Source of the DNA: an uncultured virus (IMG/VR IMGVR_UViG_2912893941_000001)
Lineage: Duplodnaviria > Heunggongvirae > Uroviricota > Caudoviricetes
Virus record (IMG/VR): IMGVR_UViG_2912893941_000001
Span: 1 to 64,000 of that record
Strand: one strand, 5' to 3'
DNA: 64,000 nucleotides
Part shown: in pieces, positions 1-54,257 of the stretch
Numbering within the stretch: the first letter of the stretch is position 1
How the letters are laid out: every line of letters begins with the position of its first letter
Position numbers and translations under genes: made by a program
The notes under the pieces: model-generated
Told to the model about the DNA's origin: nothing
The model's database searches: none
Seen by the model: the letters and a program-made list of their open reading frames with translations, nothing else

Positions 1-960
1 TTGGTTAGGCGGTCAAATATAATAGCGGCAGTCCCGGAGACGGACAAGCCCGAAATTGAATTAACCGATTTTGAAACGGCATACAACGCATTCATACGAG
101 AATGTAAAATTAAGAATCTTTCGGAACATACGCTTAAGTATTACCGGAACGAACTACTGTCATTTCGCTCGATGCTCGAGCAGCAAGGCGTATCGACTAG
201 ACCTGAAAAAATAACGCTACCGATATTAAAAGAGAACGTTATTGTGTACATGATGGATAAACTCGGAAGGAAAGAGACATCGATCAATACAAGGCTTCGC
301 GCTATTAGGGCGTTCTTTAATTTCCTCGAAAAGAACCGTATGATAGACGATAATCCGGCGAAAGAACTTTCGTTGGTTAAACAGAAGAAAGAGGTAATTG
401 AGACGTTCAGCCGTGAGCAACTTCGGGATATTCTACGACAACCGGATCAGGGAACGTTTACAGGCTTTCGTGATTATACAATCATGTTATTACTCATCGA
501 AACTGGTGTGCGTGTACGAGAACTGACTGATATAAGCGTCAAAGATATCCGTTGGGAGGATTCGCAAATACTGATTAATGGGAAGGGTTATAAAGAACGT
601 CTTGTACCGATTCAATCGACTGTTAAAACACGGTTAAGAAAGTACGTTCAGATACGCGGAGATGTACCAAATGACGCTTTATTTGTTACGATAGACAATA
701 CCCCACTAACAACACGACAGGTTCAGAATCGACTTTCTAAGTATGGCCGTATGGCAAATATTAAGAATGTTCGGTGTTCTCCACATACATTCCGACACAC
801 CTTTGCAAAGATGTCTGTTCAAAACGGCGCAGATGTATTCGCACTTCAAGCCGTACTTGGGCATTCAAGTCTTGATATGGTTCGGAATTACGTGAATCTT
901 TTCAGCAGTGATGTTATGGATGCGCATAAAAAATTCAGTCCAGTAGAAAAGTTATTTTAA
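1..960 (+). CDS. Tyrosine recombinase/integrase
   Basis: Catalytic motifs ETGVRVREL, SPHTFRHTFA, LGHSSLDMVRNY; N-terminal core-binding domain. Confidence 0.93.
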   Translation: MVRRSNIIAAVPETDKPEIELTDFETAYNAFIRECKIKNLSEHTLKYYRNELLSFRSMLEQQGVSTRPEKITLPILKENVIVYMMDKLGRKETSINTRLRAIRAFFNFLEKNRMIDDNPAKELSLVKQKKEVIETFSREQLRDILRQPDQGTFTGFRDYTIMLLLIETGVRVRELTDISVKDIRWEDSQILINGKGYKERLVPIQSTVKTRLRKYVQIRGDVPNDALFVTIDNTPLTTRQVQNRLSKYGRMANIKNVRCSPHTFRHTFAKMSVQNGADVFALQAVLGHSSLDMVRNYVNLFSSDVMDAHKKFSPVEKLF

Positions 961-10478: not shown

Positions 10479-10718
10479 TTAACCCTCCGTGTTGCTGTCG
10501 GATACCTCAATCCATTCGTACAGATCTTCGGGCGCGCAACCGAGCATCATTGCGATATTGTAGGTTCGTTCGATGCTCGGCAGGTTCCGAAGCCTGACGT
10601 AATCGGACATTTGCGTTTTTGATACTCCGACCATTGCTGCGAGTTGACTGAGACTAATTCCGCGTTTTTTGCATAGTTCGGGTATCCGACATTTGCCGAC
10701 CTTAAACGTAATAAACAC
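10479..10718 (-). CDS. XRE-family HTH regulator (start may be ATT at 10712)
   Basis: ISLSQLAAMVGVSKTQMSDY HTH; PSIERTYNIAMMLG. Confidence 0.85.
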   Translation of the reverse strand: MFITFKVGKCRIPELCKKRGISLSQLAAMVGVSKTQMSDYVRLRNLPSIERTYNIAMMLGCAPEDLYEWIEVSDSNTEG

Positions 10719-10771
10719 CTCCGTACTACATCAGATAAGGTGTCACGGAGGAAATTATAGACTATTTCCGT

Positions 10772-10993
10772 TTAATTTTCCACATCGTCAGGTACAATTC
10801 GAACAACCTTCTCGATAGGAACCTCGAGAAATTGGCATATAACATCGATCGTACCTATGTACATAGTAGCGTTTTTAGTCATGTGCTGCTTCTTAATACT
10901 TGCCTGTGTGTCAGGAGAAATGCATTTTCTTAGGTGACTAGGCTTTAGTCCTCTTTCTTTTAAAGTCTGGTATAAGGGCGAAAAATCAACCAT
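10772..10993 (-). CDS. Cro/C1-type HTH_26 regulator
   Basis: FSPLYQTLKERG...IDVICQFLEVPIEKVV; AAAGGAG RBS; divergent from aimR. Confidence 0.82.
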   Translation of the reverse strand: MVDFSPLYQTLKERGLKPSHLRKCISPDTQASIKKQHMTKNATMYIGTIDVICQFLEVPIEKVVRIVPDDVEN

Positions 10994-33090: not shown

Positions 33091-33177
33091 TACCCGCATT
33101 TTACCGCGTTAGTTGTCTATACGTTATGAGGGCGCCCGTTCAGCGCTCTTTTATTTTTGCGAAAAGGAGACGGTTTA

Positions 33178-33978
33178 ATGAAGAGATTACGAGTTATTAA
33201 TACGGAGACAGGCGAAGACTGGTCGGAAATGTACACGCTGCGGCACCGCAACCAAGACGCAGCCTTTCGTCAGCAGCAAGAAAAAACAGCCGATCGGCGC
33301 GATTTCTCAAACGCCAATATGTCTAATATTCACGAAGTCTATGACGCTCTTACGACGGCACAGTGTGGCTATCTGATGCTGCTTCAGTGCTACGTCGACT
33401 ACAACGGTGTTCTAATAAAATCCAGCCGTAATAAAACGCCGATGACCACCGCGGACATGATGGACGTTTTGCAGCTCAGTAAAAAACGGATGACCTTTTA
33501 CGACTTCCTTTCCGCCTGTACCGAGCACGACATCATCCGGGAAGAGAACGGCCGCTACAGTGTAAATGACCGCTACCACTTCAAAGGTAATTTCGGTAGT
33601 CAGCAAGTCGTTAAGCTATACAGCGCGAAGATCAAACGTGTGTACAGCGAAGTGAAGGCGACTGACATCGGTCTGATCTATCGTATGCTGCCGTTCATTC
33701 ATTACGAAACAAACGCTCTGTGCGCAAATCCTTTCGAAAAGAATCCGAAGCGCATACGTTGGTTTAACAAAAAAGAGCTTGCGGCGGCGATCGGTGTTAC
33801 CTCGGATACGCTCGGCCGGCGCCTGAAGCAGATGAAATTCGACGGCGAATACGTTGTTGCGCGAATTAAAGTCGGAAGCGAGCCGGAGCGCTATACGTTT
33901 AATCCTAACGTATTCTATCGACAATCCAAGACGCCGGACAAAACGCTGATTGCGCTGTTTAACGTTAAGAAGGTATAA
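33178..33978 (+). CDS. Tandem winged-helix protein, RepL-like
   Basis: Two wHTH-like units ending YSVNDRY and YTFNPNVFY; AAAGGAG RBS. Confidence 0.6.
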   Translation: MKRLRVINTETGEDWSEMYTLRHRNQDAAFRQQQEKTADRRDFSNANMSNIHEVYDALTTAQCGYLMLLQCYVDYNGVLIKSSRNKTPMTTADMMDVLQLSKKRMTFYDFLSACTEHDIIREENGRYSVNDRYHFKGNFGSQQVVKLYSAKIKRVYSEVKATDIGLIYRMLPFIHYETNALCANPFEKNPKRIRWFNKKELAAAIGVTSDTLGRRLKQMKFDGEYVVARIKVGSEPERYTFNPNVFYRQSKTPDKTLIALFNVKKV

Positions 33979-33998
33979 TTTTACTATACCGGAGGTGA
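33950..33998 (+). promoter_or_regulatory. SigA-like promoter and RBS of the mini-ORF
   Basis: TTGCGC(33950)-N18-TATAAT(33974); GGAGGTGA at 33991. Confidence 0.6.
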
Positions 33999-34003
33999 GG
34001 CGA

Positions 34004-34087
34004 ATGGGAATGCCACGAGGAGCTAATCCGTTAGAGAGTGCGATTAGAGGCGCAGGTCCAGCGGAAAGCGCATCACGCGGAGCATAA
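34004..34087 (+). CDS. Tandem arbitrium-peptide mini-protein M-GMPRGA-NPLE-SAIRGA-GPAE-SASRGA (27 aa, no signal peptide)
   Basis: Strong RBS; three xxxRGA hexapeptides at a 10-codon period with differing synonymous codons; terminator follows. Confidence 0.85.
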   Translation: MGMPRGANPLESAIRGAGPAESASRGA

Positions 34088-34092
34088 AACGA

Positions 34093-34120
34093 AAAAGGAC
34101 GCCTTATGCGGGCGTCTTTT
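34093..34120. terminator. Terminator hairpin after the mini-ORF, possibly bidirectional
   Basis: AAAAAG-GACGCC-TTATGCG-GGCGTC-TTTT. Confidence 0.8.
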
Positions 34121-34265
34121 CTTCGTCATCTTCCGTTTGTAATTCAAGAACTTCGATCTGCGATTTTAAGATAGCTATGTCTCGGCTGTTTAGGTTCGTA
34201 GGTAATTCAAAGCGCGCAATCTGCCCGTTTGTAAGCGCAATGCGAGCGTATTGTTTTTCGTCCAT
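34104..34265 (-). CDS. 53-aa hypothetical protein MDEKQYARIALTNGQIARFELP... (not in ORF track)
   Basis: AAGGAG RBS; convergent with the peptide mini-ORF. Confidence 0.6.
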   Translation of the reverse strand: MDEKQYARIALTNGQIARFELPTNLNSRDIAILKSQIEVLELQTEDDEEKTPA

Positions 34266-34304
34266 TCGTATAGCTCCTTCGGTGTTTATGTCTTAAATAT
34301 ATCA

Positions 34305-35117
34305 TCAGCTCTTCCACGAATCAAACGAAGGTATCCGCAGCAGTCCTTTGCGCGTCTTAAATCGATGCTTCACACGGCATTTTATCGGCTCTATATTCAC
34401 GTATTTATCCGTTTCTCCTACGTCTTTCCGCTCCGAATGAAATCTCCGCCGTTCAGCGTGCGGCATAAACTCCATCAGGCCCGCATAAGCACCGTCCTCA
34501 TACGCTAAAACAAGCGCATTATCCTCTTTCCGATAGCCCGTAATCCAAACGTCAGTATATTCGTAATTAACGATCTTCAGCCAACGATCTGACCGCTTAT
34601 TTTCCGCGTAGGACGAGTTAGCGCGCTTCATAACGACTCCTTCAATGCCGGAGCTTTTCGCTAATTCGAAAACAGCGCGGCCATTACCTGTAACGCTATC
34701 GACAATCTTAACGTTTGGATGATCGAGGGCAAGGCCGCTTAATAATTCCTTCCGCTCATATAACGGTTTCGACGTAACCGATACGCCGTCGAGACGCAAT
34801 ATATCAAACACGCAGAATACTATCGGATGATAGCTTTTTTGCGATTGAAACCGCTCCATCATAGCTTCGAAGTCTCCGGCGCCTGTCGGTCCGGGCACGA
34901 TAAGCTCGCCATCCAAAATGGTACCGTCCGGAATTTGTATCGTGTGGAGTTCGGGGAATTTAGCGGTGACTTCGTTGTTGTGGCGCGTGTAGAGGCGCAT
35001 GCGGCCGCCATCTTTGGACGCGAGCAGGCGGATACCGTCGAATTTGATTTCCGTAATGTAATCGTCAGAGTCGAACGGGTCTTTTGCGGACTCTAATAGC
35101 ATTGGCGAAATAAACAA
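34305..35117 (-). CDS. ATP-dependent DNA ligase
   Basis: EIKFDGIR (KxDG), LDGEL, VFDIL, EGVVMK and WLKIV motifs. Confidence 0.92.
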   Translation of the reverse strand: MFISPMLLESAKDPFDSDDYITEIKFDGIRLLASKDGGRMRLYTRHNNEVTAKFPELHTIQIPDGTILDGELIVPGPTGAGDFEAMMERFQSQKSYHPIVFCVFDILRLDGVSVTSKPLYERKELLSGLALDHPNVKIVDSVTGNGRAVFELAKSSGIEGVVMKRANSSYAENKRSDRWLKIVNYEYTDVWITGYRKEDNALVLAYEDGAYAGLMEFMPHAERRRFHSERKDVGETDKYVNIEPIKCRVKHRFKTRKGLLRIPSFDSWKS

Positions 35118-35208
35118 AAAATCACCTCGTTTCAGCTTCGTAATACTATAATGATATAGTAAGAGTCGGCTAGAACGAAGTGATTAGGTACTGGTAATTT
35201 ATGGTTAA

Positions 35209-35565
35209 TTAATTCTCTTTAAATATTCCGGAAGCTTTAAATCTATTTAATAATCTATTCATTTCTTGTAGGGTGAAATCGTGGCTGTTAATAAGATTGA
35301 CAACATCCTCGTCAGTCAATTCTCTTCTCTCAATAACCTTACGTCTTTCGATAACCTCACCAGTCGCAGTTACACTTTTTTCTTCTTCTTCCACGGAAAT
35401 GTTCCATCCGTGAAGATTGATTCCTAGAAAACGGTGTCTCGAATCTCCAATAGGTTTATATGTGATAATTGCTCCTGGATTTCTTCCGCCGTCTTGCTCA
35501 TACGCCGTTTTGTTAACCGATTGCTCTCTTTCTCGTAATTGAATGATTTCTTGCAATAAGTCCAA
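35209..35565 (-). CDS. Hypothetical protein
   Basis: GAGGTG RBS before TTG at 35565; AT-rich. Confidence 0.6.
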   Translation of the reverse strand: MDLLQEIIQLREREQSVNKTAYEQDGGRNPGAIITYKPIGDSRHRFLGINLHGWNISVEEEEKSVTATGEVIERRKVIERRELTDEDVVNLINSHDFTLQEMNRLLNRFKASGIFKEN

Positions 35566-35579
35566 ACGATACACCTCTT

Positions 35580-35759
35580 TTATATATTCTTTTTCATTCC
35601 GCATCTTCTACATTCGCGCAAAAACTTTCCGCTCTTCACCGAGCTTTTGAACAGCGTATAGTCACAGTTGTCGCATCGTCCTGCGCGCTTGTCCGGAAAT
35701 TCCTTGTATTCGTAAGTGATCGACGTATCAATGCCGTTAGTCTCGTATTTTTCCTCCAT
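35580..35759 (-). CDS. 59-aa zinc-ribbon protein (not in ORF track)
   Basis: GGAGG RBS; CDNC...CRRC; extended -10 TGGTATAAT upstream. Confidence 0.7.
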   Translation of the reverse strand: MEEKYETNGIDTSITYEYKEFPDKRAGRCDNCDYTLFKSSVKSGKFLRECRRCGMKKNI

Positions 35760-35889
35760 TTTCGCTGTACCTCCGTGTCCTACATCGTTGTATAGAACGA
35801 TTATACCACGAAATTACAACGAGAGAGCCGCTTCAGACGCGTTCAGGTACGATAGGTATCCGAAAGCTTGAAACGGCTCAGTTCGTTCA

Positions 35890-36327
35890 TTATTTAACGT
35901 TGAATTTCGCTGACTCAAACGTACCGACGTATTTGCGCTTTCCTGAATCCGAATAGCAGTCGATCTGAATAACGTAGGTGCCTTTGCCGGTCTTGCTGCG
36001 GATCGATTTCGCACTAAACGACTTCAGCGGCGTTGATGTCTTGAAGCTTCCGCGTTGTAACAAGCCGGTTTCAGTCATCCCGCCGCCGCTGCGCTTTTTA
36101 TAAACGCCGGCCGTGTAGTACAGCGTTGAGCCGCCTTTCTTCTCGGCTTTCCAGTCGACCGTGCTTGCGCTACTGCTGTACGTGGTTGCGTCCGTATATA
36201 CCCGCGCCTTGTGTCCGAACTTCTCCGTCTGCCAGCCCGACCATGCCGCGTCAGCTTGCGGAGCCAGCGCAATAGTGCCGGTAAATAGGGTGGCGGTGAT
36301 TACGAGCGATTTGACTAAACGTTTCAT
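35890..36327 (-). CDS. Secreted basic protein
   Basis: Signal peptide MKRLVKSLVITATLFTGTIALAPQADA; AGGAGG RBS. Confidence 0.75.
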   Translation of the reverse strand: MKRLVKSLVITATLFTGTIALAPQADAAWSGWQTEKFGHKARVYTDATTYSSSASTVDWKAEKKGGSTLYYTAGVYKKRSGGGMTETGLLQRGSFKTSTPLKSFSAKSIRSKTGKGTYVIQIDCYSDSGKRKYVGTFESAKFNVK

Positions 36328-36340
36328 ACGATTTCCTCCT

Positions 36341-37078
36341 TTAGAAGCCGACAACTTCATCGTCAATAGTCGATTTTGTATAATCGATGGTATTTCCGTC
36401 GCGATGACCGCTACTATACGCAAACATTTCCTCAATATCCGGGACTTGTATTGCGCGTGCAGTTCCGAACGACTTCGAAAGCTCTTTGTAGGCGTCGCTT
36501 ACTTCCTTCGGTTTAATAACCATCAAACCGTATTCTTCTTTCATCTGACGCAACTGCTCGGCGAATTTTTCTTTAAGCCCGTCAAGGAATCCCTTCATGT
36601 AAGAGTTTTTTAGGTCATTGGTCTTTTTTACGGTTCTGGTGGCGTATTCTTCGTCATAGTAGGAATTTATGAAACGCTTTGAGTAGAACTGAATCGCATC
36701 ATAGGCGAGTACAAACATTTCTTTCGCAAGCTGCACATCGTTGTCATAACCGAAGAAGATTACAGTTTTCTTCCTTCTTTGCTCACCGTCAAAACGTTTA
36801 TTATTGTAATAAAATTCAACTTTGAAGTTATCCGCGATAATTCGTGCTAACGAACGTTCCCACCAGAAAAGCCGCTTATAAGCCGTTGCCTGACCTTTTA
36901 CGATCTCTTGTTCAGCACATCTTTCCGTTATCTCACCGGAAGAAATATCGTGCTTAATCATGAGTTTCTGCGCCAATAGGAACGCGCTTTGCGATTCCTC
37001 ATCGCTTTTATTGTCGTTTGCAATTGCCAATAGGCCGCGAATTTTCTTTATGATCGACTCGTTGCGCGTAGAAGTCAT
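36341..37078 (-). CDS. DUF2786-domain protein
   Basis: IIKKIRGLLAIA...EESQSAFLLAQKLMIKH. Confidence 0.8.
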   Translation of the reverse strand: MTSTRNESIIKKIRGLLAIANDNKSDEESQSAFLLAQKLMIKHDISSGEITERCAEQEIVKGQATAYKRLFWWERSLARIIADNFKVEFYYNNKRFDGEQRRKKTVIFFGYDNDVQLAKEMFVLAYDAIQFYSKRFINSYYDEEYATRTVKKTNDLKNSYMKGFLDGLKEKFAEQLRQMKEEYGLMVIKPKEVSDAYKELSKSFGTARAIQVPDIEEMFAYSSGHRDGNTIDYTKSTIDDEVVGF

Positions 37079-37191
37079 ACGATTTCCTCCTCAACTTCCA
37101 GCCGCGTACCACACGTAGGGCAGCACGCGTCCGGCTTGATTTCGATATCTAACTTAGCGTAATTGCAATCGTGGCAAGTGTATTCAATCAT
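37075..37191 (-). CDS. 38-aa zinc-ribbon peptide (not in ORF track)
   Basis: MIEYTCHDC...CPTCG; coupled to both neighbours. Confidence 0.55.
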   Translation of the reverse strand: MIEYTCHDCNYAKLDIEIKPDACCPTCGTRLEVEEEIV

Positions 37192-37384
37192 CGTTATGGA
37201 TCTCCGTTTCCTTTTCGATTAAGTACCCGAAGTAGGTAAGCGCCGTATTAAAACCGATCTGATACGCGCGCCCGCTGTCCTGAAATAGCGTCATCGGTCG
37301 TTGGTATAGGTCGAGGATCTGCGCTTTTTGTTGCGCCGTTAATGGCGGCGTATCCGACCACAGGCGTCTTATATCAAGCGTCAT
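37184..37384 (-). CDS. Hypothetical protein
   Basis: AAAGGCGGTG RBS, ATG at 37384. Confidence 0.6.
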   Translation of the reverse strand: MTLDIRRLWSDTPPLTAQQKAQILDLYQRPMTLFQDSGRAYQIGFNTALTYFGYLIEKETEIHNDD

Positions 37385-37547
37385 TTTCCACACCGCCTTT
37401 CCGCCGTAAGAGCAGAAGGACAAAAAACACGATCGCCGATCCGATTCCGATATAATCGAGCGCGGAAAGCTTGGCGAAATTCATGCTCGCGATCCATGAG
37501 ACAAGGACGACAATTAGCAAAATTTCCGTGGTATTAATCCGTTTCAT
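37374..37547 (-). CDS. 57-aa two-TM protein (not in ORF track)
   Basis: MKRINTTEILLIVVLVSW...; no clear RBS. Confidence 0.5.
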   Translation of the reverse strand: MKRINTTEILLIVVLVSWIASMNFAKLSALDYIGIGSAIVFFVLLLLRRKGGVENDA

Positions 37548-37589
37548 ACGTGGTATAATTGATTGACAGGGGCTTTCGCCCCCGTTGGA

Positions 37590-37736
37590 TTATGTGCGGC
37601 GACGGTGTTTCTTGGTCGGAATCCGTCGCTCTTTTGCTTTCGCCTCTTTGCGCATCTTGCGAAGTTCTAGCGATAGTTTGAAAATCGCTAACCAAGTGCC
37701 TAGGAGCGCTGAAAGCTTTACGATGATGTCAATCAA
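37590..37736 (-). CDS. 48-aa TM peptide with a basic tail, type I toxin-like (not in ORF track)
   Basis: AAAGGAGGTG RBS; MIDIIVKLSALLGTWLAIFKLSLELRKMRK...KKHRRRT; GC hairpin follows. Confidence 0.65.
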   Translation of the reverse strand: MIDIIVKLSALLGTWLAIFKLSLELRKMRKEAKAKERRIPTKKHRRRT

Positions 37737-37842
37737 TTTACCGTTCACCTCCTTTCGTTACTTTAATTATATCGCATAAACGTTATAACGTCAATACGTT
37801 ATTGATAAAAATATCGTTTTTACGTTATAATAAGCGTAGGAG

Positions 37843-38082
37843 GTGGCGGAAATGATCGCAAAGATAAAGGTAGGCGAGGCGTTAAAGCGCTCGGGCAAGA
37901 CGCAGGGAGAACTCGCTGAACTAACCGGAATCCGTCCGAATACAATAAGTGAATTAGTCCGCGGACATAGAGAACGTATCCAGCTCGACCATCTCAGCCG
38001 GATTGCGGCGGCGTTGAATATAAAAGACATACGTGAACTGATCGATCTTGTAGACGAAGAAAACGGAGGCGCTGACGAATAG
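37843..38082 (+). CDS. XRE/HTH_26 regulator
   Basis: TQGELAELTGIRPNTISEL. Confidence 0.85.
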   Translation: MAEMIAKIKVGEALKRSGKTQGELAELTGIRPNTISELVRGHRERIQLDHLSRIAAALNIKDIRELIDLVDEENGGADE

Positions 38083-38148
38083 TTGGCGTCTTTTTTCGTG
38101 GGTTCGTTTAGTCTGCGATTCTCAATTACGATAATCTAAATGATAATG

Positions 38149-38199
38149 AACACGACTTTATTCGTACAAATCGGGCAAAAACACGACTTTATTCGTACA
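38149..38199. repeat. Perfect 20-bp direct repeat (two copies)
   Basis: AACACGACTTTATTCGTACA at 38149 and 38180. Confidence 0.85.
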
Positions 38200-39481
38200 C
38201 CCGAAAAGTGGGTTCACGCTTAGAGCCGCAAGGGATACAGCCGTTTTAGTCCGCCAATCACTTCTTAGTCTTGTGAGTCACAAGCCTCCGGAACTACGGC
38301 TCCGCCTTCGTCCGGGGTTAACGCAATCAATATATCTATTAATATCTGCGCGTATGTAGGGAACGAAGTGACCGGAGTTAGCGCTATGTTTAAATACAAG
38401 CGGAAGACACTCGTTAATATAGCGTTAATCTAACGAAATAAATAACGGAAGGGCAACGATAATACCGTATAATTTACCTCGATATGCTGTCTTACGTAAT
38501 AGAAGGACGTAACATACCGTATAACCTAGCGATAGGCAGGCGGGATATAGCCGGCACACATACGCTATATGTAACACCGTATAGGCATACGTATAGTTAT
38601 ATAGGAAGGAAGGCGGCGGAGAGGCGTCCGGTTGCGATGCGCGATGAGGCGGACAGCAACGAGCCACTGCCGGAGGATGAGCCCTTCCGAAACTCACGGG
38701 GTCAAACCGAATGACCAACGCAATATGCACGATCCTATACATAGCATACGGCACATGGCATACGGCAGGGTGCAGGCGTGGCGCGGATTCTCGAATGCAT
38801 AAACAATGTACGTTTAATTGCGATGAGTAAACGATGACGAACGTTATCATATCAACGTTTGTCTATTGATTCGAATGTAACTCAATTTACTTCTGTTAAA
38901 TTCGTTATTCATAAATATGTATTTAATATACGATGACCCAAACGAAGAATCGCGGAAACGCCGGGCCCCCCAACCGCCCCCAAAAATACCGGCGCAACTG
39001 CTGTCCGGAACTTGCGCACAATTTTTCGAACTCGGGGCGTCAACTAAACGGAGGTGATCGCGTTGTTCATTCAGGTTCAACGGCTGACAGACGACCAGAA
39101 GGCGCTATTAACGGAAAGGTTTGCGGAGATGCTCGAAGGAGACGGCGTGATAAAGATCACTGTAAATTGCGGAAGGCCCTCCATATACGACATGGTAAGT
39201 AGAACGACGAGCTTCGAAATCATCGAATCGATTACGAAATGATAAACGGAGGTGCAGCCGATGCCCCATAGATGCGACGTTTGCGAAAAAGATTGCGAAG
39301 TAGAATACGATGATATTAACGATCGTCATATGTGCGAGCGATGTTGGGACGAATATTACGAGGCTTGTTATTATGGCGGCTTAACATAACGATTCTGCCA
39401 CGAAATAAACACGCCACAGCCGGTTTAATCCAGTCGGAGGGTATTCGGTAGGGCGACGGTTAGAGGCGCTAATTTATACGA

Positions 39482-51455: not shown

Positions 51456-54257
51456 ATGGCCGGAACAACAGTCGGAGAAATCCGGGCGCGTCTCGTATTA
51501 GACATGGCGGACTGGTCCCGTCGATCTCAGCAAGCTCGAAGCGATATGGATCAAATGGGCCGTTCATCTGCGAATCTCTCGAAGCAAATGGGCCTCATCC
51601 AAAAGGCTTCGCTTGCGGTCGGTGGCGCAGTCGTAGCCGGTATCGGCGTTTCCGTCAAGAAAGCGGCTGACTTCGAGGAGGCCATGTCGCGAGTTAAAGC
51701 GATCAGCGGCGCGACCGGTCAGGACTTCGAAGATCTGAAGAACATCGCGGCTAAGATGGGAGCCGAAACAAAATATACCGCAGTCGAGGCGGCCGAGGGT
51801 CTTCAATACCTCGCAATGGCGGGCTTCAGCGTAAAAGCGCAAGTCGGATCGTTGCCGGCCGTGCTTAACTTGGCTGCGGCTTCCGGCGAAGGACTTGGAC
51901 GTTCAGCGGATATCGTTTCGAACATCATGACCGGCTTCGGCATTAAAGCGGAAGACTCCGGGCACGCCGTTGACGTACTCGTAAAAGCGATGACTACGGC
52001 TAATACGGATCTGCCGCAATTAGGCGATGCAATGAAGTTCGTGGCTCCTGTCGCGCACTCTCTCGGATATTCTATCGAAGATACTGCGACGGCCGTTGCG
52101 AAAATGTCAGACGCCGGTATTCAGGGGTCGATGGCGGGTACGGCTCTTCGTGCGTCACTCTTGCACCTTACGAATCCGGTCGGCCAGTCGGCCAAGGCAA
52201 TGAAAAAGTACGGAATCGAAGTAAAGGACGCGCACGGAAATCTAAAGCCGATACCGGAACTCGTCGGCCATATTTCGAAGCAGTTCGAGGGAATGACGTC
52301 AGCGCAGAAAACGGCCGCAGCGGCACAGCTCGTCGGAGTTGAAGCGGCTTCCGGATTCGTTACGCTCTTGGGCGTGGGGGAAAAGGGACTGCGCAACTAC
52401 TCGAAGACGCTGAAGGAAGCCGGCGGGACAGCGGACAAAGTAGCGAAAACGCAGATGGATAACCTCAAAGGGTCATTCGAACAGTTTACGTCTGCGCTCG
52501 ACGGCCTCGGAATTGCGATCGGTAACGAGTTTTTACCTACTTTCCGAAAAATTGTCGATACCGGTACGAAGGTGGTCGAGTTCCTTAGCGAACTGAATCC
52601 GGGAATCATTACGACAGGCCTCGAAATGGCGGGTGCGGCCGCAGCGGTGGCGCTAGTTGCGTCTTCCATGATGAAACTCGGAATCGCAGTGCGCGGTTTG
52701 TTCGTTGCGATGGGTCCGGCCGGATGGGTGATCACCGGGCTCTCTTTATTAGCGGGAGCGCTTGTCGGGGTGAAAGCGGGATACGATCAGATGAACACCG
52801 TTAGTTTAGAGGCGGCCGAGTCGAAGCAGAAGGAAATAGATTCTATCAACAGCTTAACGAAAGAGTTCGATAAACTTCAAAATAAAACGAAGCTGACTGC
52901 CGATGAATTCGTTTACTATCTCGATTTGAATGATCGAATTAAAACGGAGACGGATGCCAATTCCATTAAACGGATGAAGGAAGAACAGGAAGAACTGCGA
53001 AAAAAATCAGGTCTTACAAATGAGGAATTTAATCGCTACTTAGATTTAAACGATAAGGTTATCGCAAAAGCTCCGGACACTGCGGCCGCAATCAGCGAGC
53101 AAGGCAATGCCGCAGCAAAGAACACGGACGCATTAAAGCGTCTTAACAAAGAAAAAGCCGAGGAACTCCGGCTGGAGCTGGAAACCCAAAGGGCTAAAGC
53201 TGAGGCCAATATGTCTAAATATATAGCCGAAGAAGCGCGATTAAAAGAAAAAGTTAATGCGTTGACGAGAGAGCGATCCGATTTAGAGCAGCAGGTATCT
53301 GATCAATTACAAGTTGTGGCAGCTAAAGAGAGCGAATTGGCGGCAGCTAAAGAGGCTAAAGACACAGCACGGGTGGCAATAGCTGAAAATGAGCTCAACT
53401 TAGAGCAGACAAAGTTACAGAGATTGCGCGAGCAGTTTTCTACAAATATGGAAAACCTGAGCTCTAAGAATCAAGAGCTCCAAAAGACCCGTGAGAACAT
53501 CAATCAGCTAGATGTCGTTAATCAGAAAATGATCGACCTTGAGCTCCGTCAAGTTGGATTAAACGCCAAAAAGGGCGAAGGCGTTAGAGTGATCGATAAG
53601 GAGATTGGACGCTTACAAGATGCGAAGGCGAACCTTAAAAATGTTACGAATGTTGCTGATCGTAAAACGGATGAGTACCGGAAGTCTGTTAAAGCAATTG
53701 ATGACGAGATAGCAAACCTTCGTACAGCAAGAGGGCGGGTCGCGGATATTACGTCGGAAGCCCAAAGGATGAACGCTACTCTAAGTAAGGACATCACGAA
53801 ACGAATCACGACAATTACTTCGGATGTTTCTATGAAGACGGAGCGTGCCGTAAGTCGTGGAAAAGGGAACGAAGGTACTTACCACACCGGCGGCATCATC
53901 GGCCTCGGACAGATCAATAAACTTCACATCGGCGGCCTCGCGTCTCAATTCGCTAACCCGATGAGCCACGAAGTCGATATCCGGGCCCTGCGTAACGAAA
54001 TGGTGCTTACTGAAGCGCAACAGGCGAATCTTATGCGAATGATTGACGCAGGCCACACGACGGGCCTCGGAGGAGATTCCGGCTTATCTTCGGATATGCT
54101 GCGTGCGCTCAGTTCGATTGAGCAGGTGATTAAGACGAAGGGCGGCGCTTCTATCGTGATGGATAGTGAAGTTGTTGGCCGTATTGTAGAGCCGCACATC
54201 AGTCGCATTCAGCAGGACGGATATGATTTAGAACGGATGAGAGACGGGAGGTGGTAG
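51456..54257 (+). CDS. Tape measure protein (TP901-type core)
   Basis: AADFEEAMSRVKAISGA, GIQGSMAGTALR and YHTGG motifs. Confidence 0.92.
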   Translation: MAGTTVGEIRARLVLDMADWSRRSQQARSDMDQMGRSSANLSKQMGLIQKASLAVGGAVVAGIGVSVKKAADFEEAMSRVKAISGATGQDFEDLKNIAAKMGAETKYTAVEAAEGLQYLAMAGFSVKAQVGSLPAVLNLAAASGEGLGRSADIVSNIMTGFGIKAEDSGHAVDVLVKAMTTANTDLPQLGDAMKFVAPVAHSLGYSIEDTATAVAKMSDAGIQGSMAGTALRASLLHLTNPVGQSAKAMKKYGIEVKDAHGNLKPIPELVGHISKQFEGMTSAQKTAAAAQLVGVEAASGFVTLLGVGEKGLRNYSKTLKEAGGTADKVAKTQMDNLKGSFEQFTSALDGLGIAIGNEFLPTFRKIVDTGTKVVEFLSELNPGIITTGLEMAGAAAAVALVASSMMKLGIAVRGLFVAMGPAGWVITGLSLLAGALVGVKAGYDQMNTVSLEAAESKQKEIDSINSLTKEFDKLQNKTKLTADEFVYYLDLNDRIKTETDANSIKRMKEEQEELRKKSGLTNEEFNRYLDLNDKVIAKAPDTAAAISEQGNAAAKNTDALKRLNKEKAEELRLELETQRAKAEANMSKYIAEEARLKEKVNALTRERSDLEQQVSDQLQVVAAKESELAAAKEAKDTARVAIAENELNLEQTKLQRLREQFSTNMENLSSKNQELQKTRENINQLDVVNQKMIDLELRQVGLNAKKGEGVRVIDKEIGRLQDAKANLKNVTNVADRKTDEYRKSVKAIDDEIANLRTARGRVADITSEAQRMNATLSKDITKRITTITSDVSMKTERAVSRGKGNEGTYHTGGIIGLGQINKLHIGGLASQFANPMSHEVDIRALRNEMVLTEAQQANLMRMIDAGHTTGLGGDSGLSSDMLRALSSIEQVIKTKGGASIVMDSEVVGRIVEPHISRIQQDGYDLERMRDGRW

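Follow-up and report, generated by a model that had tools for sequence, protein, structure and literature searches.

A provirus recorded in IMG/VR as IMGVR_UViG_2912893941_000001, whose positions 1 to 64,000 were analyzed (this whole stretch of 64,000 nucleotides is referred to below as the window), carries a mini-gene of 27 codons whose product, MGMPRGANPLESAIRGAGPAESASRGA, concatenates GMPRGA, SAIRGA, and SASRGA, each the mature signal peptide of an arbitrium system (a receptor, AimR, and its peptide, AimP) of other Bacillus phages. We consider it likely that this mini-gene is dedicated to signal forging, silencing the AimR of rival phages, and its aim is probably to trick those rivals into entering or staying in dormancy. 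The original prediction, made from the sequence alone, had described a stand-alone gene for other phages' peptides that is kept by selection; this has held up, on the evidence of in-frame alleles, swapped modules, matches to a census of known signals, exclusion of the carriers' own AimP, agreement with the host, and co-residence with a potential target.

A mini-gene composed of arbitrium signals

Direct reading of the sequence bears out the predicted open reading frame (ORF) at 34004 to 34087, with its ribosome-binding site and its terminator (coordinates of all features are collected in Table 1). The predicted promoter stood in part: the TATAAT box is perfect, is present in all cassettes, and takes the extended -10 form TGGTATAAT behind a second upstream gene described below, but the -35-like hexamer is weak, which is why a promoter scan called no + strand promoter at the mini-ORF. 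The G+C-rich hairpin that follows the stop codon is a bidirectional terminator, shared by the + strand unit with the - strand genes that converge on it. As predicted, the 27-amino-acid (aa) product has no signal peptide, with neither a basic N-region nor a hydrophobic stretch. Fusion to the upstream gene by frameshifting was dropped as an explanation, the ORF having its own perfect Shine-Dalgarno (SD) sequence and ATG and also following a different upstream gene, and a role as leader peptide or attenuator was rejected because the ORF is the last in its unit, in front of the terminator.

The modules were compared with Table S2 of Gallego-del-Sol et al. 2026 (PMC13220667), a census of 26 mature peptides from 281 clade-2 systems. 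All alleles together have 11 distinct modules of clade-2 type, of which eight are identical to census peptides and jointly account for 151/281 systems: SASRGA (42/281), GMPRGA (32/281), GFTVGA (23/281), SAIRGA (19/281), SIIRGA (17/281), SPSRGA (8/281), GFPRGA (5/281), and GIVRGA (5/281). The earlier attribution of GMPRGA to SPbeta and SAIRGA to phi3T is confirmed by the same paper, which assigns GIVRGA to Goe11, and SASRGA, previously placed in the same xxxRGA class, proves to be a real signal. Five further modules, confined to the first slot (GEIKPGA, GEIRPGA, GEIKLGA, GELNPGA, and GELKPGG), resemble the codes of the carrier clade itself; the nearest pair of a first-slot module and a natural peptide is GELKPGG and ELRPGG, one residue apart.

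A six-frame translation of the window contains four matches to the 26 census hexapeptides, three of them inside the mini-ORF, whereas 200 mononucleotide shuffles yielded 30 matches in total (0.15 per window). When 2.9 million IMG/VR contigs were scanned with a degenerate pattern, a ribosome-binding site followed by M-GxxRGA...xxxRGA-stop, seven loci emerged, all of them the cassette in the same phage family. A chance origin of the module matches is excluded. The fourth match in the window, GTRPPS at 52584 on the - strand, lies antisense to the tape-measure gene and is a chance match.

Besides the window, at least 22 IMG/VR proviruses have the cassette at the same site, as do one metagenome contig and the named genomes of B. 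paralicheniformis KJ-16 and B. glycinifermentans GO-13, both of these genomes with an allele combining GFTVGA and GFPRGA. A scan for the conserved pattern of -10 box, leader, SD sequence, and start codon retrieved 21 IMG/VR records and the metagenome contig; it is not exhaustive, since it missed one record that fits the pattern (L011, IMGVR_UViG_2634166398_000003). The allele of that record ends in TAG, not TAA. By blastn, the 112-nucleotide (nt) cassette has no match in 50,697 INPHARED records of isolated phages or in 72,556 PLSDB plasmids, and an exact look-up in a collection of 15 billion proteins found neither the 27-aa product, nor a 45-aa ORF extended to a TTG start, nor a 21-aa allele.

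The cassette is insertion-like. In four records it stands behind a different, 147-aa upstream gene, with TATAAT, leader, SD sequence, ORF, and terminator unchanged, which indicates that these five elements form the traveling unit. Another record (G001, 95.5 kb) is 100% identical to the window over 1.3 kb around the ORF, yet it has another AimR/AimP pair, with a peptide ending in DIRVGA. At 50 related IMG/VR loci fetched with the 273-aa protein encoded upstream of the mini-ORF, 18 have the cassette, 28 lack it, and four end too early for assessment. Loci without it have AACGAAAAAGG or another terminator immediately after the TAA of the upstream gene. Phages 268TH007 and phi18-2 have a homologous upstream gene, and the terminator AACGAAAAAGGACGCC adjoins its stop codon; precisely at this junction, the window has 109 extra bases. 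In cassette-less 268TH007, moreover, the upstream gene ends in GCA TAA and not GTA TAA (L002 5240-5262). Because GCA TAA is the mini-ORF's own ending, this junction looks like the deletion scar of a former cassette, as opposed to a site that was never occupied. The same ATAA borders the cassette on both sides (GTATAA, with its TAA at 33976-33978, and GCATAA, with its TAA at 34085-34087), and this short direct repeat could be a means of cassette gain or loss.

The homologs bear out two further expectations of the original prediction, namely, that hexapeptides would be swapped for other known AimP peptides and that the reading frame would be conserved in related prophages. There are 16 distinct alleles of 17 to 39 codons, all in frame, with length differences that are all multiples of three and no broken copies. 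They have three modules in MGMPRGANPLESAIRGAGPAESASRGA (the window), MGMPRGASSLESASRGASPSRGA, MGMPRGASPLESIIRGAGPVRGA, MGMPRGASPLESIIRGAGPAESASRGA, MGMPRGANPLESAIRGASPSRGA, MGELNPGAGPQLYGMPRGASPLEGIVRGA, MGEIKPGANPLESAIRGASPSRGA, MGEIKPGANPLESIIRGAGPAESASRGA, MGEIRPGASPLESASRGASPSRGA, and MGEIKLGANPLESAIRGAGPAESASRGA; two in MGMPRGASPLEGIVRGA, MGMPRGASPLESIVRGA, MGEIKPGANPLESASPSRGA, and MGFTVGAKELPKPKYGFPRGA; and four in MGELNPGAGPQLYGMPRGASPLESIIRGAGPAESASRGA and MGELKPGGFPQRYGMPRGASPLESASRGAGPVRGV. The differences between alleles include modules swapped, added, or lost. Every allele starts with Met-Gly, and Gly-Ala directly precedes the stop codon in all but one. That allele (L145) ends in GPVRGV and is the sole exception to a C-terminal Ala.

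Selection acts on the peptides. Substitutions were counted by the Nei-Gojobori method over the 13 subtilis-type alleles, aligned by slot, as proportions of nonsynonymous (pN) and synonymous (pS) differences. The RGA cores have a pN of 0 at a pS of 0.145 (pN/pS, 0), the linkers a pN of 0.069 at a pS of 0.492 (0.14), and hexapeptide positions 1 to 3 a pN of 0.223 at a pS of 0.532 (0.42); for the mini-gene as a whole, the values are 0.112 and 0.373 (0.30), and the final 100 codons of the upstream gene give 0.123 and 0.390 (0.32). Amino acid changes cluster at module positions 1 to 3, and specificity is set by positions 2 and 3 of the arbitrium hexapeptide, according to excerpts of PMC13220667. 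The RGA cores of the window are coded by CGA GGA GCT, AGA GGC GCA, and CGC GGA GCA; these synonymous differences, from which selection on the peptide had been predicted, are confirmed, and the absence of nonsynonymous change in the cores supports that reading.

The codons also speak to the origin of the modules. Each of the three slots retains its own codon signature, and SASRGA is encoded as AGC GCG AGT AGR GGC GCR in slot B and as AGC GCA TCA CGC GGA GCA in slot C, that is, with different Ser and Arg codon families, which implies that the same peptide was reached twice. GFPRGA and GFTVGA differ between natural aimP and the mini-gene in 4/6 codons, all synonymously, and the modules are thus not recent DNA copies of aimP ends. 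Judged by these substitution and codon patterns, the mini-gene is a protein-coding gene under purifying selection that acts on its peptides.

Carriers, hosts, and the candidate mode of action

It had been noted originally that no aimR adjoins the mini-gene. This is true at the locus but overlooked an aimR/aimP pair of the prophage's own, 21.7 kb upstream, whose clade differs from that of the RGA signals. The two genes overlap, as they do in most relatives' pairs (by 59 to 77 nt). Carriers' own peptides end in ELRPGG, DIRVGA, EIKVGG, INAIGG, or ANQLGG, and in none of the 14 carriers with an identified AimP of their own does that peptide recur as a module of the mini-gene. AimR is absent from two complete carriers.

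The module repertoires match the host clade, as far as the listed census rows indicate. Within the first 10 rows for each peptide in Table S1 of PMC13220667, the sources of GMPRGA, SAIRGA, and SASRGA lie in the B. subtilis complex, and those of GFTVGA and GFPRGA among the rows listed there are B. sonorensis, B. licheniformis, B. paralicheniformis, B. haynesii, B. glycinifermentans, and B. swezeyi. The allele combining GFTVGA with GFPRGA is found in the B. licheniformis group, where both signals belong by those rows. Forger and potential target also meet in one genome: B. glycinifermentans GO-13 holds a mini-gene with GFPRGA, a clade-2 AimR (E value, 3.8e-85) with a natural AimP ending in GFPRGA, and the carrier's own AimR/AimP.

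If transcribed, the mini-gene would give rise to a strongly translated, leaderless mini-protein with two to four hexapeptide modules, each the arbitrium signal of another Bacillus phage. Methionine aminopeptidase removes Met before Gly, and at the Met-Gly start this enzyme would expose the native N terminus of the first module, while the stop codon right after the final Ala would provide the last module with its native C terminus. Endoproteolytic cuts at the linkers would release the remaining modules. The free hexapeptides would then occupy the rival AimR and take it off the DNA, leaving aimX unexpressed, and the rival phage would enter lysogeny rather than lysis or would fail to be induced; the carrier's own AimR, which answers to a peptide from a different clade, would be unaffected. 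The peptides would most likely act first inside the carrier cell, against co-resident or incoming rivals, and after lysis they might also act on neighbors by way of extracellular proteases and Opp.

Several published results bear on these steps. According to excerpts of PMC6458997, the AimR of SPbeta grips the hexapeptide by its free amine (Q299 and E300) and its free carboxylate (R228), contact residues that also appear in Table S4 of PMC13220667, so that the chain would have to be cut. Cognate peptides block the induction of SPbeta, phi3T, and Goe11 and most noncognate peptides do not (PMC13220667, in part), and a forger would therefore need one module per target. As to a fitness effect, which we infer, Manley et al. 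2025 (10.1101/2025.10.13.681967) argue, in sections of their preprint, that a prophage runs a smaller risk of mortality itself when it pushes a superinfecting phage to lysogenize. Internal Phr pheromones need two cuts, for which B. subtilis WprA and Bpr are responsible (excerpts of PMC11343458); that they are freed outside the cell makes release by lysis followed by uptake through Opp a feasible route. Lack of an export signal, together with the moron-like setting described below, favors action inside the carrier cell. The likelihood that we assign to signal forgery is divided about evenly between these two routes, with a slight edge for the intracellular one.

A number of points weigh against signal forgery. 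Short unstructured peptides are usually degraded quickly in the cytoplasm, and we know of no protease that cuts both behind the Glu or Tyr preceding a module and behind the Ala of RGA. In natural propeptides, cleavage occurs behind the Ala of V/I-A, so the linkers of the mini-gene do not copy the natural site. Three clade-2-type modules (SIVRGA, GPVRGA, and GPVRGV) are not among the 26 census peptides, and the five first-slot modules match none of 38 natural AimPs (17 distinct C termini) parsed from 50 AimR loci of the carrier clade. Conversely, GFGRGA, the commonest clade-2 signal (56/281), occurs in no allele, even though record G001 has, about 35 kb downstream of its mini-gene, a clade-2 AimR (L056, G001:C1:66633-70511; E value, 2.8e-72) whose AimP ends in GFGRGA. 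B. paralicheniformis KJ-16 has the cassette, yet no AimR match was found anywhere in its assembly. The cassette is missing from 28/46 assessable relatives, and the IMG/VR records are partly redundant, six of them sharing one identical allele.

Eighteen public runs from seven studies contain the stretch, and one of them, a food metatranscriptome, is a declared RNA library. Its contig of 346 nt covers 33890 to 34235 with no mismatches, at a depth of 3, without strand information and with DNA carry-over possible, which also counts among the points against; it is compatible with transcription but is no proof of it. A second contig of the same metatranscriptome carries the cassette-less junction, and carrier and noncarrier relatives therefore co-occur in one sample. 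Three raw RNA-seq runs under the same species label yielded no reads for the stretch, which makes them uninformative on expression.

Among the alternatives, the best placed, although improbable, is that the peptides address something other than a rival's AimR: AimR-like receptors on nonphage elements, other RRNPP receptors, or the Opp permease, by competition. AimR-like receptors do exist outside canonical prophages (PMC13748020, in part), and the cassette of KJ-16 would find a place here, but the modules exactly copy signals known to be received by the AimRs of SPbeta-like phages, and the repertoires track the host clades of those phages. Somewhat less probable still is honest, cooperative signaling across species, in which the phage would announce that it is itself lytically active, using the "languages" of others, for mutual benefit. 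Cross-communication between arbitrium systems is documented and has been framed as communication (PMC13220667, in part); against this, the carrier has no receptor for the module peptides, so that information could flow only one way, its own peptide is excluded from the mini-gene (0/14), and early lysogeny has been argued, in excerpts of 10.1101/2025.10.13.681967, to be costly to the receiver.

The original prediction had proposed an unprocessed multivalent mimic, a sponge in which the whole 26-mer ties up several AimR molecules uncut. The product does have several binding motifs on one chain and no export signal, and after Met removal, its first module would have a native free N terminus and its last a native free C terminus. 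AimR, however, forms salt bridges with the free amine (E300, with Q299) and the free carboxylate (R228) of its ligand (PMC6458997, in part), and no uncut module has both ends free; moreover, Rap binds immature Phr peptides poorly (excerpts of PMC11343458). For the internal modules this mechanism is unlikely, and for the product as a whole we give it little credence. We regard it as more doubtful again that the modules are an accessory input to the carrier's own arbitrium circuit, as extra ligands for its own AimR. The first-slot modules GEIKPGA, GEIRPGA, and GELKPGG resemble peptides of that AimR clade, GELKPGG differing from ELRPGG by one residue, but the same allele occurs in phages with different systems of their own (ELRPGG in G000 and DIRVGA in G001), two complete carriers lack AimR, and the RGA modules belong to another clade. 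Finally, a nonfunctional chance ORF or decaying remnant of captured aimP ends, a reading that can cite the silence of every gene-calling pipeline, the unproven expression, and the many relatives that lack the cassette, is close to refuted by the chance controls, the perfect and conserved SD sequence, the 16 in-frame alleles with no broken copy, the pN of 0 in the cores despite synonymous change, the missing natural propeptide context, and codons unlike those of natural aimP.

Genomic setting

The window is nearly the whole of a 64,318-bp provirus record with an estimated completeness of 98%. In a map drawn from PHROG and Pfam scans of its proteins, replication genes lie between the integrase and the regulator region. 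The two regulators that diverge from aimR may constitute an extended arbitrium module with a small antirepressor, of the kind presented in parts of bioRxiv 10.1101/2025.11.23.689978. DNA polymerase, ribonucleotide reductase, and further nucleotide metabolism genes lie downstream of aimR/aimP, and a methylase, the small sigma factor, and phrog_13088 lie upstream of the 273-aa gene. In phages 268TH007 and phi18-2, homologs of the 273-aa gene bear the label "DNA binding protein" or "AsnC family protein." The - strand block that converges on the mini-gene spans 34104 to 38850 and includes DNA ligase; the structural and lysis genes come after it. The closest isolated phages are B. subtilis 268TH007, 268TH002, and phi18-2, with a nucleotide identity of 76.7 to 78.4% over 50 to 59% of a 3-kb query.

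Table 1. Features of the window, in order of position
Feature	Position	Strand	Remarks
Integrase	1-960		PHROG/Pfam scans
Two small Cro/C1-type helix-turn-helix regulators	10479-10993	-	Divergent from aimR
Prophage's own AimR, 394 aa	11129-12313	+	PF22871, E value 1.8e-20; phrog_1728, E value 1e-58
Prophage's own AimP-like propeptide, 42 aa	12249-12377	+	TTG start; signal peptide; C terminus ELRPGG; overlaps 3' end of aimR by 65 nt in another frame
Phage sigma factor, 127 aa	32222-32605		Region 4 only; phrog_3512; two genes 5' of cassette
273-aa gene upstream of mini-ORF	33157-33978	+	phrog_9501; without AimR domain
TTGCGC, weak -35-like hexamer	33950-33955	+	3/6 match; 18-nt spacer to TATAAT; not kept where upstream gene differs
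TATAAT, -10-like box	33974-33979	+	Spans TAA stop (33976-33978) of 273-aa gene
Cassette, 109 bp	33979-34087	+	Leader, SD sequence, ORF, and stop
SD sequence GGAGGTGA, 8 nt	33991-33998	+	Perfect; 5 nt 5' of ATG; invariant across alleles
Mini-ORF, 27 codons plus TAA	34004-34087	+	ATG at 34004; stop at 34085-34087; product MGMPRGANPLESAIRGAGPAESASRGA
Module GMPRGA	34007-34024	+	SPbeta signal
Linker NPLE	34025-34036	+	Variants SPLE, SSLE; Leu and Glu invariant in 13 alleles
Module SAIRGA	34037-34054	+	phi3T signal
Linker GPAE	34055-34066	+
Module SASRGA	34067-34084	+	Directly abuts stop codon
G+C-rich hairpin	34098-34116	Strand-neutral	A-run before, T-run after; scan: terminator-like on - strand
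Convergent 53-aa ORF	34104-34265	-	Unknown function; first gene of - strand block
181-aa protein with N-terminal signal-like segment	35890-36435	-	phrog_8287 (unknown function); adjoins DUF2786/DUF7168 protein and ATP-dependent DNA ligase

Implications and comparison with known systems

On balance, we lean toward regarding the mini-gene as the first known gene devoted solely to forging the signals of other viruses, a leaderless "signal cocktail" that devotes one module to each rival specificity and in which modules are swapped, added, and point mutated to track the arbitrium codes of the host clade. We could find no described counterpart to such a receptor-less, leaderless concatemer of foreign signals. 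Full-text literature searches, whose scope did not extend to the 2019 ten-clade census or to Erez et al. 2017, returned no paper on a gene of this kind. In the two cross-talk papers (PMC13220667 and 10.1101/2025.10.13.681967), neither "orphan" nor "concatenat" occurs, "tandem" appears only in the title of a reference, and the Cell version does not contain "multiple AimP."

Arbitrium is the model for communication between viruses, and two studies from 2025 and 2026 showed that similar signals can leak between phages to the gain of the emitter. Were the mini-gene a forger, deception itself would be under selection, as a weapon or shield in conflict between phages and not as an accident of similarity. 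It would explain in concrete terms why AimR-AimP specificities turn over, the diversification of arbitrium becoming an arms race of forgers against receivers, and because the modules would name their targets, they would predict which phages compete in nature. ORFs far below annotation cutoffs would then be able to carry major social functions. The mini-gene would also offer a natural programmable switch that drives selected temperate phages into dormancy, and with it a compact tool by which laboratory and industrial Bacillus strains could keep SPbeta-like prophages silent or have incoming phages lysogenize.

The nearest relative by content is AimP itself. The mature hexapeptides are identical, and the last module is at the extreme C terminus, as in AimP. 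Natural AimPs, however, are propeptides of about 40 aa with a Sec signal peptide, all those parsed here having an MKK start and then a hydrophobic run, whereas the mini-gene product has no signal peptide; they are encoded directly 3' of their aimR, whereas the mini-gene sits behind phrog_9501 and has no cognate receptor in its carrier. An AimP yields one mature peptide, its last six residues, and a mini-gene chain has two to four different signals, of which only the last is C terminal. The residues before the module are V/I-Ala in natural AimPs but Glu, Tyr, Met, or the Ala of RGA in the mini-gene, and the codons differ. With three defining features of AimP absent from it, the mini-gene falls outside the AimP family, though it is built from AimP mature peptides.

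In canonical AimP cross-talk (PMC13220667; bioRxiv 10.1101/2025.10.13.681967), the peptide of one phage likewise silences the AimR of another and promotes lysogeny or blocks induction, to the gain of the emitter. There, however, the effect arises incidentally, from the similarity of cognate signals in complete AimR-AimP systems, whereas the mini-gene is a separate gene with exact foreign copies and none of its own. The tandem propeptides of phage Rap-Phr systems resemble it in having several pheromones per precursor; as described in parts of Felipe-Ruiz et al. 2024 (PMC11343458), they are secreted by means of a signal peptide and adjoin a Rap, which their repeats serve, whereas the mini-gene has neither signal peptide nor adjacent RRNPP receptor and its modules suit different foreign receptors.

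In its setting, the mini-gene is like phage morons and superinfection exclusion cassettes, being a small, apparently autonomous unit (-10 box, strong SD sequence, and terminator) between convergent operons, with a patchy distribution and two upstream contexts. Superinfection exclusion blocks adsorption, injection, or replication, whereas the action proposed for the mini-gene would be false signaling to the decision circuit of the invader. Interference by peptides is familiar in Gram-positive bacteria, from noncognate autoinducing peptides of the staphylococcal agr system to plasmid inhibitor peptides, such as iCF10 of Enterococcus. These likewise sway the receptor of another party, but they act as antagonists or self-inhibitors and have an export signal, unlike the exact agonist copies, several to a gene, that a virus would here be directing at other viruses.

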